Shown here one piece after another: positions 5,606 through 12,095 of a stretch of 44,037 nucleotides of DNA; within the stretch, counting starts at the first letter, position 1, and every line of letters begins with the position of its first letter. A model generated the notes under the pieces. The model was not told the DNA's origin. It worked only from the letters and a program-made list of their open reading frames with translations, and ran no database searches. The stretch spans positions 1 to 44,037 of the forward strand of contig WFRT01000177.1 of NCBI GenBank assembly GCA_015486445.1, given 5' to 3'. The DNA is from Pseudomonadota bacterium (GTDB lineage Bacteria; Desulfobacterota; Anaeroferrophillalia; Anaeroferrophillales; Tharpellaceae). The translations under genes and the position numbers were made by a program.

Positions 5606-5800
5606 TTATTTTTTGGCCGGCTCGGAAAGCAGGACGCCGCCCTTGCTGATATTATCCCGCTCTTCTTCGTCGATAAAGATCAGGATGTTTTCCCGGGGCT
5701 TGCCGGAAACCCGGGAAATCACGTCGGTAACCCCGGCGCAGATATCGGCTTTCTGATCACGACTGAGCTTTCCGGCAACCCGGATATTGACATACGGCAT
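5606..5800 (-). CDS. 4-oxalocrotonate tautomerase family protein
   Basis: 64-aa ORF beginning MPYVNIRV (Pro-1 after Met removal). Its size and beta-alpha-beta-type pattern fit the tautomerase superfamily. Confidence 0.65.
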   Translation of the reverse strand: MPYVNIRVAGKLSRDQKADICAGVTDVISRVSGKPRENILIFIDEEERDNISKGGVLLSEPAKK

Positions 5801-6067
5801 GGAGCAACCTCGATTCTAAAAGGTTCATTCAGGGCGGGCAGATAAAAACACCCGCAACTACACTCAAAGTAAAACATTCCCCGGTTTTTGTCAACTTGCC
5901 GCCGCCCCTTAAAGCCCCGACAGCGGCCCCATTAAAACGGTTGCAAGGAACCGAAAAAGCAAGTAAATATAGCGATGATTGCAGTATTTGACGGTTTGCC
6001 GGCGTCATCCCGCCCGGCCGAGACCCAGCTCCCAACCCGCCATTGAAACCGGCCGCGAAAGCAATTC

Positions 6068-8107
6068 ATGAGACAACTCCTGCCCACTTCCGAAAGCATC
6101 AATGATCTCCTGGCCGAGAACTGGGAACTGCGCTGGAGGGTCTTTGAGGTCTTTTACCGCACCCGGCTTATCCTGTATGACTTTTCCCGCTCCTCACAGG
6201 AGTACCGGCAGGCCCGGGAACTCTGCCGGGAGCTGGCCGGCCGGCTCAATGGCCCGAGCGACGTCAACCTGCACCTGGTTCTGAACGCGGCCTGGTTCCT
6301 GGGGGGCAGCCATTTCCTGCTGCTGGTCCTGGAAAAGATCGGAGTGGACGACCCGGAAACGGGCGATGCGGAAACCCTGCGCTGTAAAAAACCACTCAAC
6401 GCCAACCAGCCCGACGCCTCTTTTTACGACTATTTCCACTCCCTGCTGCGACGCGGCAAGGCCCTGGACGCCACGGCCGAAACCGCCATCCGGATTTTTC
6501 CTCCTGAACACGGATTGAACCTGGTCTGCGCCATCCCCGAATCTGAATCACGCTGCTCCGCCATCAGGCTGCTGCGGCATCATTACCCGGGGGTGTTTTT
6601 CAACCAGCTGCTGCTGCAGGAAGAACCGGAACGACTGGAAAAATTCCCGGAACTGGTGGAATTCATCTCTCCCCCTGTGCCGGCGGGGGAAGAAGAACGG
6701 CTGAAAAACCTCATCACCCCCCTGCTTGAAGCGCACGACTTGAGACTGGACCTGGCCCTGCAGGCAACAGCCCGGCTGGAACTCAGATCTTTAGCGAAGC
6801 AACTCGACAAACTTCCCGACGACCTTTTAACCCTCGCCACGAAAGCCCGCCTCGGGGACCGGGAAAGCTGCCGCAAACTGCTCAAAAGCGCGACTTCATG
6901 GCGGCGCGGCAAAAGGACGCAAGCCCTTTCCCGGCTCGGAGCCTGCCGGCGACAGCCGGAAGTTTTCGAACTCTTGCAAGAGCGCCTGCGCAAGGGCAGC
7001 CAGGAAGAGAGGCGCATCGTTCTCGACACCCTGGCCGACGAACCCGACCGACAGGTCCTGGGCCTTTTGCTGGAGCGCCTGGAACAGAGCTGGGACCACG
7101 ATGAAAGCCGGCTTCTGCTCAGGACCATATCCGCCCATCCCTGGCCCGACCTGCCCGTAAACGAGGCCCGGGAAATTGCCGACCGGCTGGCCGAACTGGC
7201 GGACAGCATCGAACTCTATCCCGAGCTCACGGCGGCGGCGGCCCGGTTTCCCTGCAGTGAAAAATGGAAAGAGTTCCTGCTGAGCCGGGTCAAATCCCCG
7301 ATTCTCAAGCCGCACTACCGGGAAATCGCCCTTTTCATGACCCGCTTTGCCGACCAGGAAGCCATCCGCCGCCACCTGAGCAAACTGCTGCTGGATGTCG
7401 ACTGGTCCTTCTCCTACCGCCTGCTCAGCCTGCTGGCGCCGGTTTTTACCAGCGCCGACGTCCCCCTCCTCCTGGGCCTGCTGAAAGACCGCGAAGAGCA
7501 CCGGGAACTGACCATCAAAGAGCGCCTGACCCGGGGACGGGACCTGGAACAACTGCCCGAGGCCCTGGCGGAATTTTTCCAGCAGCAGCCGTCAATCGCC
7601 CGGCAGGTTGTCGAAAAACTGCTCACCGGGGTGGTTACCGGAGCCTTCAACACCCCGGAAAAACTGTTTGCCGAACTGCGGCGGGAACCGGCCGAACTCG
7701 CCGAACTGCTGCTGGGATCGGCCGGGGAAAACCAGACCGCGGAAACCGTCAGCCTGCCCCGCCTGCTGGTCTGGCACCTGCTCTCGGCAATCAAGGTTGA
7801 CGGCAGCGATTGTTTTGCGCTAGTAGTACATCGAACCCGGCGTTACGACGGCTATTTCCGGCACCGGATCAGCGCCGTCCTCAATCGCCTGCTGGAACAG
7901 GAAAACGAATTGCAGGATCCCGGCAACCTGCCGATCCTGCGCCTGATCATCGACTTTATCCGGGGCCGTTCCGAATTTGACGAGTTGCGCCGGAAACTGC
8001 TTGACCGGGTTGCACTGGTCACTCGGCGCTGCCGTGAACTGAAGGTTTTCAGCGAAGCCTCTCAAACCCGGGACCTGATGGTTTTCAAGATCAGGAAACT
8101 GGGATAG
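6068..8107 (+). CDS. Hypothetical 679-aa Leu/Arg/Glu-rich helical-repeat (HEAT/ARM-like) protein
   Basis: ATG at 6068. No signal peptide or TM segment and no catalytic motif recognised. Segments such as ERRIVLDTLADEPDRQVLGLLLERLEQ and RLGDRESCRKLLKSATSW look like HEAT-like helical hairpins. The stop lies 13 nt before the next gene. Confidence 0.5.
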   Translation: MRQLLPTSESINDLLAENWELRWRVFEVFYRTRLILYDFSRSSQEYRQARELCRELAGRLNGPSDVNLHLVLNAAWFLGGSHFLLLVLEKIGVDDPETGDAETLRCKKPLNANQPDASFYDYFHSLLRRGKALDATAETAIRIFPPEHGLNLVCAIPESESRCSAIRLLRHHYPGVFFNQLLLQEEPERLEKFPELVEFISPPVPAGEEERLKNLITPLLEAHDLRLDLALQATARLELRSLAKQLDKLPDDLLTLATKARLGDRESCRKLLKSATSWRRGKRTQALSRLGACRRQPEVFELLQERLRKGSQEERRIVLDTLADEPDRQVLGLLLERLEQSWDHDESRLLLRTISAHPWPDLPVNEAREIADRLAELADSIELYPELTAAAARFPCSEKWKEFLLSRVKSPILKPHYREIALFMTRFADQEAIRRHLSKLLLDVDWSFSYRLLSLLAPVFTSADVPLLLGLLKDREEHRELTIKERLTRGRDLEQLPEALAEFFQQQPSIARQVVEKLLTGVVTGAFNTPEKLFAELRREPAELAELLLGSAGENQTAETVSLPRLLVWHLLSAIKVDGSDCFALVVHRTRRYDGYFRHRISAVLNRLLEQENELQDPGNLPILRLIIDFIRGRSEFDELRRKLLDRVALVTRRCRELKVFSEASQTRDLMVFKIRKLG

Positions 8108-8120
8108 GCTTGAGTCTCTC

Positions 8121-9638
8121 ATGGGCATGAACATCTCGATATTTTTCAACAACGTCAACCTGCTGGTCTACGGCCAGGATGAAGAGACCGGAAAAATCGA
8201 ACCGGTCCACCTGGGCGACATCTCGACCACGGTTGAAATCATGACCACCCGGGGCCCGGAAACACTCCACCTGGTTCCGGCCATGATCTGCTACGGCGAC
8301 CGCATCTACTGCGGCCAGGAGGTCTTCAGCCAGAAAAAATTCAACTCCCCGGCAACCTTCAAATACATGAAGCAGTATATCGGCAAAGGCCAGCATCTGC
8401 ACCGGATTATCGGCGACCAGGAGATTTCGACCTTCCAGGCGGCCAGCGACCTGATGATCAACATTATCGACCGGATCCACGAACGCTACGGCCGGGAGAA
8501 CATCGGTATGATCGTTTTCATTGTCGAACCGTTGAACTTCTCGGTCTTTGCCTCACTCATCGAAAGCTTCTGCCTGCGCATCGGCCTGGTCAACTACAAG
8601 GTCGTGGACGAAGCGGTCTGCGCCCTGCTCGAATACAACCTCGCCAACCAGCTCGACCACCACCTGATCTATCTCCATTTCGGCTACACGACCATCGACC
8701 TGACCCTGCTCAAGGTCACCGAGAGCAACCGCGAACCCCGCCTGAAAAGTGTCATCATCTGCAGCATGCACAAAAATTACGGGGCCGTCGATATCGACAA
8801 GACGATCCAGGACTACTTTGCCGACCGCTGCCAGATCAGCATGAAAAAAGCCCGGGAAATCAGGGAGCAGCTGAATCGCCGGCCCCACTACCAGGAGACG
8901 GTCGACGGCCGGGAACTCAAGCTTTCCCGGCAGCAGCTCCATGTCATGCTGGACCGGAAAGGCTACGGCGAGGAGCTCAAGGTCCTGTTGCGCGACCTCT
9001 TCGACCTGGCCTCGGGTTACGGCGTCACTTACGAAAACATCAACTATGTTCTGGGTACCGGGCTGAGCCTGCCGACCCCTTACTACCACGATATCCTGAA
9101 GGCCTTTTTCGGCCCCAAGTTTCTCAGCCGGAAAGCCCACGACGCGATCCCTCTCGGGGCCCTGCGCTACCTCCAGAAGGGGGGCCGCCAGGCCACCATC
9201 AAGGCCAACTACGCCCTGCGCAGCCGCACCGCCCGGGGCGAAGGCTACCGTTTTGACATCATCGTTCCCAAGGGCACCCCCTACCCGACCCAGAACGGGG
9301 TTACCAGCATCATCGCCAACGGCTTTTATGCCGGCCAGATCGAGGTCGAACTCGATATCTTCCGCATGGACCGGCCCGAAAGCAGCAGCGACCGGGAAAT
9401 CGTCATCGACGATACCGGCCGGATGCAGCTGGAAGAGAACCTGGGCGACGAGCAGCAGTCTTTCATCAACGAAGCCAGCCCCGAGATCATCCCCCTGGAC
9501 CCGCCGGCCCTGGACAACGAACGCCGCCTGGAAATTACCTTCGACATCAGCCTGAACCGCGACCTCCTGATAACCGTCAAGGACTTGAGGCGCAACCAGA
9601 CGATCTGGAAACGAAAAAAATCGGTGCGCCTGGAATGA
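8121..9638 (+). CDS. Hsp70/DnaK-superfamily protein with degenerate nucleotide-binding motifs (NBD plus beta-sandwich SBD-like C-terminus, no helical lid)
   Basis: Collinear matches to DnaK landmarks, listed as ORF vs DnaK. VPAMICYGDRIYCGQEV vs TPSIIAY..LVGQPA. VFIVEPLNFS vs VITVPAYFND. KVVDEAVCALLEYN vs RIINEPTAAALAYG. YLHFGYTTIDLT vs YDLGGGTFDIS. VLGTGLSLPTP..ILKAFFG vs ILVGGQTRMP..VAEFFG. IIVPKGTPYPTQ vs LIAKNTTIPTK. RLEITFDISLNRDLLITVKD vs [20 protein letters not shown]. Confidence 0.75.
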   Translation: MGMNISIFFNNVNLLVYGQDEETGKIEPVHLGDISTTVEIMTTRGPETLHLVPAMICYGDRIYCGQEVFSQKKFNSPATFKYMKQYIGKGQHLHRIIGDQEISTFQAASDLMINIIDRIHERYGRENIGMIVFIVEPLNFSVFASLIESFCLRIGLVNYKVVDEAVCALLEYNLANQLDHHLIYLHFGYTTIDLTLLKVTESNREPRLKSVIICSMHKNYGAVDIDKTIQDYFADRCQISMKKAREIREQLNRRPHYQETVDGRELKLSRQQLHVMLDRKGYGEELKVLLRDLFDLASGYGVTYENINYVLGTGLSLPTPYYHDILKAFFGPKFLSRKAHDAIPLGALRYLQKGGRQATIKANYALRSRTARGEGYRFDIIVPKGTPYPTQNGVTSIIANGFYAGQIEVELDIFRMDRPESSSDREIVIDDTGRMQLEENLGDEQQSFINEASPEIIPLDPPALDNERRLEITFDISLNRDLLITVKDLRRNQTIWKRKKSVRLE

Positions 9639-9847
9639 AAAACGAAAACCTCGAAACCCGGCCGGCGGCTCTCCGTTCCCGCGCTCCCGAAAAACCGCCG
9701 CGGCAGACTTTCATCACGATCTCCCCGGATGGCGAAATTGCCGCCTGGGGGCTTGATCCAGACGTGGAAAAACTGATTTTGCGCTTGACCGGAAACCGGG
9801 AGTTGATTAAAGCTAACCGGAAAATGGCCTACGAATTGTGCGGTTAA
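9635..9847 (+). CDS. Hypothetical 70-aa protein, translationally coupled to the Hsp70-like gene
   Basis: Its ATG overlaps the upstream TGA (ATGA at 9635-9638). The ORF fills the gap to the AAA+ gene (46 nt remain). No recognisable family. Confidence 0.45.
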   Translation: MKNENLETRPAALRSRAPEKPPRQTFITISPDGEIAAWGLDPDVEKLILRLTGNRELIKANRKMAYELCG

Positions 9848-9893: not shown

Positions 9894-11384
9894 ATGAACT
9901 TTCTCGACAATTTCAACACGACGATCCGCAGCAACCATTCCCTGATCAACATCGTAACTTACGAAGAGGCCAGGTTTCTCTTGATGGTGGCCGAGTCCCC
10001 GTTGTTCAAGGACAAAAGCATCATCGTCTGGGACCTGGCCGACGGCTTCAAGACGATCAAGGGCAGCACCAGCGGCATCAAGAACAAGGAGCGCGCCGAC
10101 CCGATCCACTGCCTCCAGGAAGTCAAGAAGTTCAGCGGCAACGCTATCTTCATCCTGCGCGACTTCCACCTGCATTTCCGGGAAAGCATCATCCTGCGCT
10201 CGCTGCGCAACCTCAACCAGGACCTGCGCGCGAGCAAAAAGACCATCGTCATAACCACCCCGACCTCCACCCTGCCGGCGGAACTGCGTGAAGATGTCTG
10301 CCAGATCGAGCTTGAACTGCCGGGCTACAAGGAGATCGAGAAGGAACTCGACAACGTCGTTGCCAGCACGTCCCAGCCCAATCCGCCGACCCCGCAGCTC
10401 AAGGAAAAGATTGTCGAATCGACCCTGGGACTGTCGATGGTCAACATCAAGAACCTGTTTTCCCGAATCATCATCACCCACGGGGTTATCGATGAACGGG
10501 CGATAGAGATCATCCTGCACGAAAAACGCAGCATCATCAAGAAAGGGGAGATCCTCGAATTCTTTCCGGTCCAGGAAAGCCTCAACGATATCGGCGGGCT
10601 GGAAAATCTCAAGGCCTGGCTGCGCAAGCGCAGCCAGGTTTTCACCCACAAGGCCAAGGACTACGGCCTGCCGGCCCCCAAGGGAATCCTGATCATCGGT
10701 ATTCAGGGCACCGGCAAAAGCCTGACCGCCAAGGCCACGGCCGGGCTCTGGAAACTGCCGCTGCTGCGCATGGACCTGGGCAAGGTCTTCGGCAGCCTGC
10801 TGGGTGAATCGGAACAGAATCTGCGCCAGGCCATCAACCTGGCCGAAACCATTTCACCCTGCATTCTCTGGGTTGACGAGTTGGAAAAAGCCTTTGCCGG
10901 CAGCACCGGCGGGGCCGGCGACGGCGGCACCTCGGCCCGCATTCTCGGCACCTTTCTCACCTGGATGCAGGAAAAAACCAAGCCGGTCTTCATCATCGCC
11001 ACCGGCAACGACGTCGCCCAACTGCCGCCCGAGTTGATGCGCAAGGGCCGCTTCGACGAAATCTTCTTTGTCGACCTGCCCTCCAATTCGGAGCGCCAGG
11101 CGATTTTCAAGGTCCTGCTCGAGAAGGTCCGGCCGGTGATCCGCCAGTTCAACCTTGAAAAACTGGCCGAGGCCACCGAAGGCTACAGCGGAGCCGAAAT
11201 CGAGCAGATCATCTATGACGCGATGTTCAATGCCTTCGACGACAACCAGCGTGAATTTACCGAAGAAGACATCCTGGGCAGCGTTTCGGAGATCATCCCG
11301 ATTTCACGCCTGATGAGTGAGAAGATCGGGGCCCTCAGAACCTGGGCCACGCACCGGACCCGCAAGGCCAACAGCGAAACCTGA
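9894..11384 (+). CDS. Classical-clade AAA+ ATPase, Ycf46-like (single AAA module with ~250-aa N-terminal domain)
   Basis: Walker A GIQGTGKS, Walker B ILWVDELEKAF, sensor-1/SRH FIIATGNDVAQLPPELMRKGRFDEIFFVDLP, lid GYSGAEIEQI. The N-terminal IRSNHSLINIVTYEEARFL resembles the Ycf46 family N-domain as I recall it. SD-like AAGGGGA sits upstream. Confidence 0.85.
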   Translation: MNFLDNFNTTIRSNHSLINIVTYEEARFLLMVAESPLFKDKSIIVWDLADGFKTIKGSTSGIKNKERADPIHCLQEVKKFSGNAIFILRDFHLHFRESIILRSLRNLNQDLRASKKTIVITTPTSTLPAELREDVCQIELELPGYKEIEKELDNVVASTSQPNPPTPQLKEKIVESTLGLSMVNIKNLFSRIIITHGVIDERAIEIILHEKRSIIKKGEILEFFPVQESLNDIGGLENLKAWLRKRSQVFTHKAKDYGLPAPKGILIIGIQGTGKSLTAKATAGLWKLPLLRMDLGKVFGSLLGESEQNLRQAINLAETISPCILWVDELEKAFAGSTGGAGDGGTSARILGTFLTWMQEKTKPVFIIATGNDVAQLPPELMRKGRFDEIFFVDLPSNSERQAIFKVLLEKVRPVIRQFNLEKLAEATEGYSGAEIEQIIYDAMFNAFDDNQREFTEEDILGSVSEIIPISRLMSEKIGALRTWATHRTRKANSET

Positions 11385-11464: not shown

Positions 11465-11842
11465 ATGTCACATTTCACCAAGCTCAGAACCAAGATCACC
11501 GACAAGATCTTCCTGAAAAAAGCGATCAGCGACATGGAACTGGAATACGAGGAGGGCAAGCTCAAGGCCAGGGGCTGGCTCTGGAAAAGGGAAAAGGCCG
11601 ACCTGATCATCCCGACCAAAAGCGGCTATGACATAGGTTTCCGCTTCAACGGTGAAACCTACGACATCGTCGCCGACTGGGACTCGATCAAGGACGTCGA
11701 CCAGGAGACTTTCGTCAATACCCTGAGTCAGCGCTACGCCTACAACGTAGTCAAGGAAACCCTGGCCCAGCAGGGTTTCCTCCTGACCGAGGAACAGGTC
11801 AAAAGCGGCAACATCAACCTGACCCTGAGCCGGGAGCAGTAG
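11465..11842 (+). CDS. DUF1257 (Ycf35-like) protein
   Basis: 125-aa ORF starting MSHFTKLRTKITDKIFLKKAISDMELEYEEG. The MSHF..I.T.I.D start is the hallmark I associate with DUF1257/Ycf35. Strong SD GAAGGAG lies 7 nt upstream. Confidence 0.7.
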   Translation: MSHFTKLRTKITDKIFLKKAISDMELEYEEGKLKARGWLWKREKADLIIPTKSGYDIGFRFNGETYDIVADWDSIKDVDQETFVNTLSQRYAYNVVKETLAQQGFLLTEEQVKSGNINLTLSREQ

Positions 11843-11897: not shown

Positions 11898-12095
11898 ATG
11901 GAAAAAATCAATATCACGATCGCCCGGGACGGTTCCGTCAAACTTGAACTGGACGGCTTTACCGGCGGCAAGTGCATGGAAGCGACCAAGGCCCTGGAGA
12001 CCCTGCTGGGCGGCGAAGTAATCGAGCGGGAACTGACCAGCGAATACTACGCGGCCGAAGAGGTCAAACAGGAAGAAAAACTTTCCGCGACCTGA
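11898..12095 (+). CDS. DUF2997 protein
   Basis: 65-aa ORF MEKINITIARDGSVKLELDGFTGGKCMEATKALETLLGGEVIERELTSEYY. It fits the I.I..DG.V.....G..G..C...T..LE..LG......T.EYY pattern I associate with DUF2997. Follows the DUF1257 gene, as is typical for this pair. Confidence 0.65.
   Translation: MEKINITIARDGSVKLELDGFTGGKCMEATKALETLLGGEVIERELTSEYYAAEEVKQEEKLSAT

Follow-up and report, generated by a model that had tools for sequence, protein, structure and literature searches.

We analyzed a window of 44,037 nucleotides (nt), by which we mean the whole stretch at positions 1-44,037 of contig WFRT01000177.1 (assembly GCA_015486445.1), from a member of the Desulfobacterota (order Anaeroferrophillales, family Tharpellaceae). 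The forward strand carries a six-gene cassette encoding, in order, a 679-amino-acid (aa) protein, an Hsp70-like protein, a 70-aa protein, an AAA+ ATPase, a DUF1257 protein and a DUF2997 protein (Table 1). Throughout the order the cassette is kept, with flanks that partly differ; close relatives have parts of the flanks in common (tautomerase, AsmA and asd genes). The Hsp70-like protein, our subject here, lacks the helical lid and the ATP-binding motifs of Hsp70 chaperones and is probably a functional pseudo-ATPase.

Table 1. Features of the window and of related loci that retain the ATP-binding motifs (intact loci). Coordinates refer to the window unless a locus is named.
Feature	Position	Strand	Size or residues	Evidence or remarks
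Lidless Hsp70-like gene	8121..9638	+	505 aa	open frame
Nucleotide-binding domain (NBD)	8121-9185	+	residues ~1-355	
β-Sandwich substrate-binding domain (SBD-β)	9186-9635	+	residues ~356-505	
Degenerate phosphate-1 loop, ISIFFNNVN	8133..8159	+	residues 5-13	alignments, per-position counts
Degenerate phosphate-2 loop, HFGYTTID	8676..8699	+	residues 186-193	alignments, per-position counts
Degenerate adenosine motif, GTGLSLPTP	9054..9080	+		alignments, per-position counts
All-α HEAT/ARM-type solenoid	6068..8107	+	679 aa	AlphaFold (AF2) and Foldseek
Solenoid C-terminal tail	from ~8027 (to 8104)	+		predicted disordered
70-aa clade-specific protein	9635..9847	+	70 aa	ATG overlaps Hsp70-like TGA (ATGA 9635-9638)
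Classic-clade AAA+ ATPase, ~500-aa family labelled Ycf46-like	9894..11384	+	496 aa	PF00004 2.3e-29, AAA_lid_3
AAA+ Walker A, GIQGTGKS	10698-10721	+		
AAA+ Walker B, ILWVDELEK	10863-10889	+		
DUF1257 (Ycf35-like)	11465..11842	+	125 aa	PF06868 2.5e-25
DUF2997	11898..12095	+	65 aa	PF11211 7.9e-17
4-Oxalocrotonate tautomerase-family gene	5612-5803	-	64 aa	PF01361 6e-12
Intact cluster 1: AAA+			~508 aa	E ~1e-140 to the window's AAA+
Intact cluster 2: HEAT-WD40 protein			~870 aa	
Intact cluster 3: GrpE-like			~175 aa	PF01025 1.5e-7 to 4e-7; NCBIfam GrpE 1.8e-6
Intact cluster 4: lidless Hsp70-like protein			about 505-540 aa	
Intact cluster 5-6: DUF1257, DUF2997				
Intact cluster 7: radical SAM, nearest NrdG and other glycyl-radical activases			~190 aa	TIGR02491 1.5e-32, under cut-off
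Intact cluster 8: second HEAT-WD40 protein			~750 aa	
HEAT-WD40 examples with twin tail	L066:5254-7968; L066:10790-13033; L068:4364-6961			

Pfam gave no match for the 505-aa protein even at E ≤ 10, and the PF00012 threshold was not reached. In NCBIfam, HscA matched at 3.9e-6 (25.8 bits against a cut-off of 743) and DnaK at 1.8e-3, both hundreds of bits under their cut-offs, and DnaK chains in the PDB matched at 3.9e-4 over two collinear stretches, residues 39-236 in the NBD and 461-493 in SBD-β. A search of 5.8 billion proteins returned about 38 close homologues (hereafter the clade; 57-92% identity, all 504-506 aa), together with four full-length relatives at 24-26% identity that match PF00012. 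Intact relatives pass PF00012 at 2e-36 and 2e-28, and BLASTP against one of 533 aa gave an alignment collinear over residues 1-504 (E = 9e-38, 23% identity). The Hsp70 homology of the window protein is secure because intermediates that match PF00012 align with it end to end.

The AF2 model, built from 16 sequences (predicted local distance difference test, pLDDT, 81.3; predicted template modeling score, pTM, 0.72), predicts a two-lobed actin-like NBD and a β-sandwich SBD. Its best Foldseek matches were two-domain structures of DnaK, BiP and Hsc70 (E = 1.5e-26 to 1e-20), including DnaK without SBD-α (5obu) and a lid-truncated BiP (7a4v). The chain ends at residue 505 in the last SBD-β strand (E493-503 in the model), the helical lid (SBD-α) is absent, and the whole lidless subfamily ends at this same strand. 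An initial annotation of this DNA had described a protein collinear with DnaK over the NBD and SBD-β, which the BLASTP bridge, the model and Foldseek bear out, and one that stops right after SBD-β without a lid, on which alignment and model agree. It had also pointed to a missing EEVD-type tail; this is true but uninformative, because bacterial DnaKs lack EEVD anyway. A canonical DnaK is encoded separately on another contig of the same genome (PF00012, 905 bits), and we found no other member of the lidless subfamily in the source genome.

We placed the ATP-contacting motifs by MAFFT alignment with the genome's own DnaK, hmmalign to the subfamily profile, BLASTP and the structure model. All were concordant, and MAFFT and hmmalign reproduced the register that the initial annotation had assigned by eye to the three motifs. 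At phosphate-1, GIDLGTTNS in DnaK and GVDFGTSNS in intact relatives correspond to ISIFFNNVN (Asp to F8, Gly to N10, Thr to N11, Thr/Ser to V12). At phosphate-2, DLGGGTFD and DFGGGTLD correspond to HFGYTTID (Asp to H186, Gly-Gly to Y189-T190), and at the adenosine motif VGGMTRMP and VGGSSQIP correspond to TGLSLPTP (residues 313-320), in which G314 is retained and the second Gly has become L315. The profile register, bridged by intact relatives, and the model thus put these substitutes where Hsp70s have the Asp, Gly, Thr and Thr of phosphate-1, the Asp and Gly-Gly of phosphate-2 and the second Gly of the adenosine motif. The pocket residues that are retained comprise K84 (K70 in DnaK), E164 (E171), T191 (T199), D193 (D201), G188 and G314. 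E164 is the NEPTAA Glu, which had been read as kept; it is indeed present in the window's taxonomic family and is Gly, Asn, Cys or Asp in the order's sister family.

Loss of the motifs is common to the orthologues. On an 11-position motif score the window protein has 4 and its clade 3-4, compared to 10-11 for all 59 other genome loci. At the phosphate-1 Asp position, 33 of 36 clade members have Phe, and all 49 aligned intact members have Asp. F9 and N11 (36/36) are, like F8, near invariant in the clade, and position 186 drifts among His, Asn, Leu and Met. The sister family shows other replacements (FFGNAF, NFGPMCLD and CAGSSLQIP) and has lost the Glu (VDGGVC).

Hsp70 loops grip the β- and γ-phosphates via the backbone amides of Gly and Thr, and two Asp residues position Mg2+. 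The Gly/Thr donors and both Mg-coordinating Asp (the equivalents of D8 and D194) are lost together, and therefore nucleotide binding is unlikely. As far as the motifs can tell, this is a functional pseudo-ATPase of the Hsp70 superfamily, most likely unable to bind nucleotide, and it very probably does not cycle ATP.

We weighed the possibility that the pocket retains non-canonical ATP binding, perhaps with slow hydrolysis, and serves as a slow regulatory switch in the manner of Ssz1, a subunit of the yeast ribosome-associated complex. K84, E164, T191, D193 and G188/G314 are still in place, and unusual loops have precedent in other ASKHA-fold proteins. Structures of the Ssz1-containing complex (6sr6, 5mb9 and 7x3k) are among the Foldseek matches, and Ssz1 would resemble our protein as an Hsp70 fold that is a non-cycling subunit of a bigger chaperone assembly. 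Ssz1, an atypical Hsp70, retains nucleotide binding, has no need for ATP hydrolysis and serves as a structural partner. It differs in pairing with a J-protein and not with an AAA+, and its sequence shows no kinship beyond the superfamily. The loss of the backbone donors of both loops and of both Mg-coordinating Asp speaks against residual binding, as do the bulky Leu at the second adenosine Gly, the loss of E164 in the sister family and the lack of an exchange factor encoded in the operon, and we regard such binding as quite improbable.

Searched with the subfamily profile, 1.84 billion representatives yielded 305 proteins at E ≤ 1e-30. Most are 505-560 aa long, and the window's entire clade is one representative among them. 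Most of the 150 best representatives retain DFGTSNT, DEPSAAA, DFGGGTLD and VGGSSLIPS. Maximum-likelihood analysis grouped the clade as monophyletic (support 100 in the SH-like approximate likelihood ratio test, SH-aLRT); it branches from within the family, apart from DnaK, and its stem is 1.93 changes per site long. The tree was made by a quick method, and the long branch makes the sister group of the clade unsure (support 81 for the group of P0094). This topology indicates that motif replacement is a derived state acquired on the long stem branch. The whole Hsp70-like protein is 24-26% identical to intact relatives, compared to 31-35% for a comparable intact pair; the NBD has 21% identity against an intact-intact baseline of 35%, and SBD-β 28% against 34.5%, so that SBD-β has remained nearer to the intact relatives than the NBD has.

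The absence of a Pfam HSP70 match and the long stem would also fit a relic or pseudogene in decay, left over from the intact system, or a motif loss that is an artefact of alignment. Against either, the ratio of nonsynonymous to synonymous rates (dN/dS) of the window gene with ten orthologues is 0.05-0.19, the frame is open in all orthologues and keeps its length of 504-506 aa in more than 35 of them at 57-92% identity, and the register is the same in MAFFT, hmmalign, BLASTP and the model with a pLDDT of 81. The gene is also nearly universal in the order, where 21 of the 27 species genomes, and 13 of the 15 of high quality, have one copy. Decay or artefact is thus effectively refuted, with a probability close to nil, and these comparisons indicate a functional gene under strong purifying selection rather than a relic. 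Identity to the window protein is 76-84% within its own family and 57-61% in the other family of the order, a pattern that fits vertical inheritance; two sequence subclades track the two taxonomic families. The clade includes metagenome-assembled genomes named Candidatus Tharpella.

Phosphate-2 and adenosine motifs are degenerate in a second, separate clade of the lidless family too (e.g., IICFDETDLT and MTGRGSAIPA), with the phosphate-1 DFG often retained. This second clade comprises P0104 (L086:3384-5012), P0086, P0091, P0106, P0124, P0128, P0130, P0140, P0142, P0147, P0155, P0168 and P0170, and the gene of one member sits between those of a 934-aa WD40 protein and a DUF2997 protein. Judging by these motifs, loss of ATP binding motifs seems to have happened at least twice in the lidless family. 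We also noted P0040 (432 aa, on a 2.3-kb metagenome contig), in which a Ser/Thr kinase domain and a HisG-like piece are joined to the last 155 residues of the window clade's SBD-β (72% identity); we take this predicted protein for a probable assembly chimera rather than a genuine fusion.

We fetched 80 genome loci and labelled their open reading frames with the window's proteins and those of one intact locus. The totals given here are 22 clade loci and 61 intact loci, 83 in all, and many of the intact loci end at contig ends. Intact relatives are found in Anaerolineae and other Chloroflexota, Desulfomonilaceae, Syntrophales, Planctomycetota, Verrucomicrobiota, Armatimonadota and one cyanobacterium, where the loci form a recurring same-strand cluster of eight genes (Table 1). 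Cultured carriers include Longilinea arvoryzae KOME-1 (L066) and Thermanaerothrix daxensis GNS-1 (L028). In 67 of the 83 loci a DUF1257 gene comes after the Hsp70-like gene or the AAA+ gene, and 65 loci have DUF2997; among the 61 intact loci, the counts are 51 for DUF1257 and 50 for DUF2997. We rejected the idea that the AAA+ is a compensation found only beside a dead Hsp70, as 30 of the 61 intact loci have the AAA+ gene (19 of the 31 with full flanks). By this survey, lidlessness and an AAA+ neighbor are traits of the whole family, and motif loss is the peculiarity of the clade. The initial annotation had called a pseudo-ATPase Hsp70 beside an AAA+ unusual, which holds for the motif loss but not for the AAA+ neighbor or the missing lid.

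Three components of the intact cluster, the GrpE-like protein, the NrdG-like radical SAM protein and the HEAT-WD40 proteins, were found neither in the window nor in any locus of its clade. Where at least 700 bp of upstream sequence was available, 27 of 57 intact loci have a GrpE-like gene immediately before the Hsp70-like gene, compared to none of 19 clade loci. For loci with full flanks, radical SAM genes occur in 26 of 31 intact and 0 of 5 clade loci, and WD40 genes in 27 of 31 and 0 of 5. These contrasts are descriptive, not statistical, because one lineage is one evolutionary event.

Two further loci show variation in gene order. The locus of the candidate sister P0094 (L088:2551-9317) encodes an Hsp70-like protein with intact motifs, a 372-aa protein of no recognized family, a WD40 protein, the AAA+, DUF1257, DUF2997 and a radical SAM protein; its order of Hsp70-like, AAA+, DUF1257 and DUF2997 genes equals that of the window, which fits the tree placement. 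A planctomycetal locus (L062:1076-9596) is permuted to DUF1257, DUF2997, radical SAM, AAA+, a weakly DUF1257-like frame, a 1054-aa WD40 protein, GrpE-like and Hsp70-like, so that the gene set is retained while its order changes.

The reading as a pseudo-ATPase, which the initial annotation had put forward as probable, is supported by the confirmed register, the derived state, purifying selection and the 19 clade loci without a GrpE-like gene. Several points weigh against it. Four residues of the catalytic site survive (K84, T191, D193 and, in the window's family only, E164), and we infer the absence of nucleotide binding from the motifs alone. The replacement residues FFNNVN are themselves conserved, and the pocket may therefore hold a new ligand instead of none. 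About half of the intact relatives are also without an adjacent GrpE-like gene, so its absence in the clade is consistent with the reading and not decisive, and the 19 clade loci reflect a single loss rather than independent ones.

The conserved replacement residues raise the question of whether the cleft has been repurposed. The FFNNVN loop and the remodelled phosphate-2 loop would then bind a new ligand or a partner peptide, with the 70-aa protein as a candidate, and the NBD would be locked in one conformation that substitutes for the nucleotide cycle. The conservation of F8 and N11 in the clade fits this idea, and so does the 70-aa gene, which is coupled to the Hsp70-like gene by the ATGA overlap, occurs in 18 of 22 clade loci (the remaining loci are cut by contig ends) and is absent from the conserved gene order of intact loci. 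However, position 186 varies freely and the subclades differ at many pocket positions (FFNNVN and FFGNAF; GYTT and GPMC), which looks like relaxed constraint rather than a common new site. Neither homology nor structure ties the 70-aa protein to the cleft, and we consider repurposing unlikely. In the 70-aa protein the C-terminal ...LCG is invariant and a TGN motif recurs; Pfam, NCBIfam and PADLOC gave no family match for it. An ITI..DGE stretch is weakly like the DUF2997 N-terminus (hhalign probability 23% over 14 columns only), and a comparison with GrpE, made in case the protein were its remnant, gave no similarity (hhalign probability 0.2%).

The 679-aa protein, encoded upstream of the Hsp70-like gene, had no match in Pfam, NCBIfam or PADLOC. 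Its AF2 model (pLDDT 75.8) consists entirely of helices and matches importin, PP2A-A and SF3B1-type solenoids in Foldseek. The solenoid is present in 20 of 22 clade loci and in no intact locus, and it occupies the place of the HEAT-WD40 proteins of the intact systems. With the HEAT N-terminus of the downstream HEAT-WD40 proteins hhalign gave a probability of 79% (E = 1.5e-5), which we take as no more than suggestive, since generic matches among HEAT repeats are to be expected. Homology to the HEAT half of the upstream HEAT-WD40 protein was unsupported (hhalign probability 7%), and there was no similarity to the 372-aa protein of L088.

In the model the solenoid has a disordered C-terminal tail (residues 657-679, pLDDT < 50), with two short, conserved, basic motifs, RELKVF...RDLMVFKIRKLG. 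The twin motif reads RELKVF...R(E/D)L.(I/V)FK(V/I)(K/R)KL across the clade and RELKVF...RELKIFKVKKL in the window. Both HEAT-WD40 proteins of intact systems end in a twin acidic motif, RFDIEI...GEFDIEL, of the general form R(F/Y)DI(E/Q)(I/V)...GEFDI(E/Q)L (examples in Table 1). These twin tails, acidic in HEAT-WD40 proteins and basic in the solenoid, may be recognition tails for the SBD of the Hsp70-like protein or for the AAA+.

The window's AAA+ has Walker A, Walker B, sensor-1 (IIATGN) and Arg-finger motifs all intact, together with a pore-loop-like SLLGESE and RKGRFD, and it matches the CDC48, PAN and FtsH subfamilies in NCBIfam. At 44-47% it is as similar to the AAA+ of intact systems as distant intact systems are to each other, and it evolves at an ordinary rate. 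We label it Ycf46-like from its size, from source records that name relatives as SpoVK/Ycf46/Vps4 family, and from its 45-55% identity to a phylum-wide ~500-aa family. Just upstream of the operon lies a tautomerase-family gene on the opposite strand, which adjoins the operon in three related genomes also. A simple scan of the plus strand for promoters and terminators gave nothing beyond the shuffled expectation. PADLOC-DB 2.0 contained no defence-system model for the system and gave no match for the Hsp70-like protein, the solenoid or DUF1257; the AAA+ domain alone matched IetA models (1.3e-30), which is generic AAA+ similarity. The near-universal, single-copy distribution of the gene in the order is not a patchy one.

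The closest comparison is with the intact lidless family. Beyond full-length collinearity (E = 9e-38), length class and the end on the last SBD-β strand, the window protein has in common with it the invariant SBD motifs GTPYPT, NE..P, DPP and F..N..L.IT..D and the neighbors AAA+, DUF1257 and DUF2997. It differs in lacking the phosphate-1, phosphate-2 and adenosine motifs, and its lineage differs in having the 679-aa solenoid and the 70-aa protein and no GrpE-like, radical SAM or WD40 propeller protein. The window's order of Hsp70-like, AAA+, DUF1257 and DUF2997 genes also departs from the usual intact order.

The DnaK/GrpE and DnaK-ClpB systems likewise combine an actin-like NBD and an SBD-β sandwich with an AAA+ alongside. 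Unlike DnaK, the window protein has neither a helical lid nor ATP-binding loops, and the hydrophobic interdomain linker VLLLD of DnaK is replaced by ATIKANYALR. No J-domain partner was seen in the window operon, and the AAA+, a single-ring classic-clade enzyme of ~500 aa, is unlike ClpB.

The three downstream genes of the window belong to, or are labelled as, the Ycf46, Ycf35 (DUF1257) and DUF2997 families of cyanobacteria and plastids. A DUF2997-ycf35-fed7 cluster in cyanobacteria has been reviewed (PMC4284462). The AAA+ Ycf46 is reported to belong to an operon induced by stress and to act by an unexplained mechanism; it has been linked to the use of CO2, and an interaction with KaiC is reported (PMC7496141, PMC13683863). 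These cyanobacterial clusters are described without an Hsp70-like partner, in contrast to the system studied here. HSP70-GrpE modules are known from GTPase- and tubulin-centred conflict systems of a different architecture (Kaur et al. 2020, PMC7159879). In the open literature on DUF1257 and DUF2997, we found nothing describing the Hsp70-like/AAA+ gene system.

We propose that the ancestors were ATP-cycling lidless Hsp70-like proteins with their own GrpE-like exchange factor, an AAA+, HEAT-WD40 scaffolds, DUF1257, DUF2997 and a radical SAM enzyme. In the window's order both phosphate loops and the adenosine Gly-Gly were replaced, the Hsp70-like gene has no GrpE-like gene beside it, and the protein would now act as an ATP-independent adaptor or holder. 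Its SBD-β would clamp a peptide segment of a partner, for which the disordered conserved tail of the solenoid is the prime candidate by analogy with the HEAT-WD40 tails. The inert NBD would provide a docking surface, and energy-dependent remodelling would be left wholly to the intact AAA+, acting with DUF1257 and DUF2997. A pseudo-ATPase serving as an adaptor is, on balance, our preferred explanation overall, and we give the adaptor model in this specific form an even chance. The initial annotation had also suggested an adaptor or substrate-holder role; its pseudo-ATPase core is supported, while the role and the identity of the bound peptide are what we infer.

The boldest version, which we think doubtful, is that the order carries a naturally minimized, nucleotide-free Hsp70/AAA+ machine, with a cleft permanently locked, possibly by the 70-aa protein, and a β-sandwich that holds the basic twin-motif tail of the solenoid. 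If it were true, the Hsp70 module of the Ycf46-Ycf35-DUF2997 system would be a tail-binding adaptor delivering scaffold-bound clients to an AAA+ unfoldase, and it could do without ATP cycling, GrpE, the radical SAM enzyme and the WD40 propellers, which would be accessories.

Hsp70s are defined by an ATP-driven clamp cycle, and we found no description of bacterial Hsp70-fold proteins that are clearly without nucleotide binding and yet strongly selected. What is new here is a pseudo-ATPase branch together with a co-ordinated absence of GrpE-like, radical SAM and WD40 proteins. Through this system the Ycf46 (AAA+), Ycf35/DUF1257 and DUF2997 families, long orphans, are linked to a chaperone module. 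The window's lineage amounts to a natural deletion experiment in this module: the ATPase motifs, GrpE-like protein, radical SAM enzyme and WD40 proteins have been lost, and SBD-β, AAA+, DUF1257 and DUF2997 have been kept. It gives direct hypotheses for dissecting the machine, and the minimal six-gene set is tractable for reconstitution.

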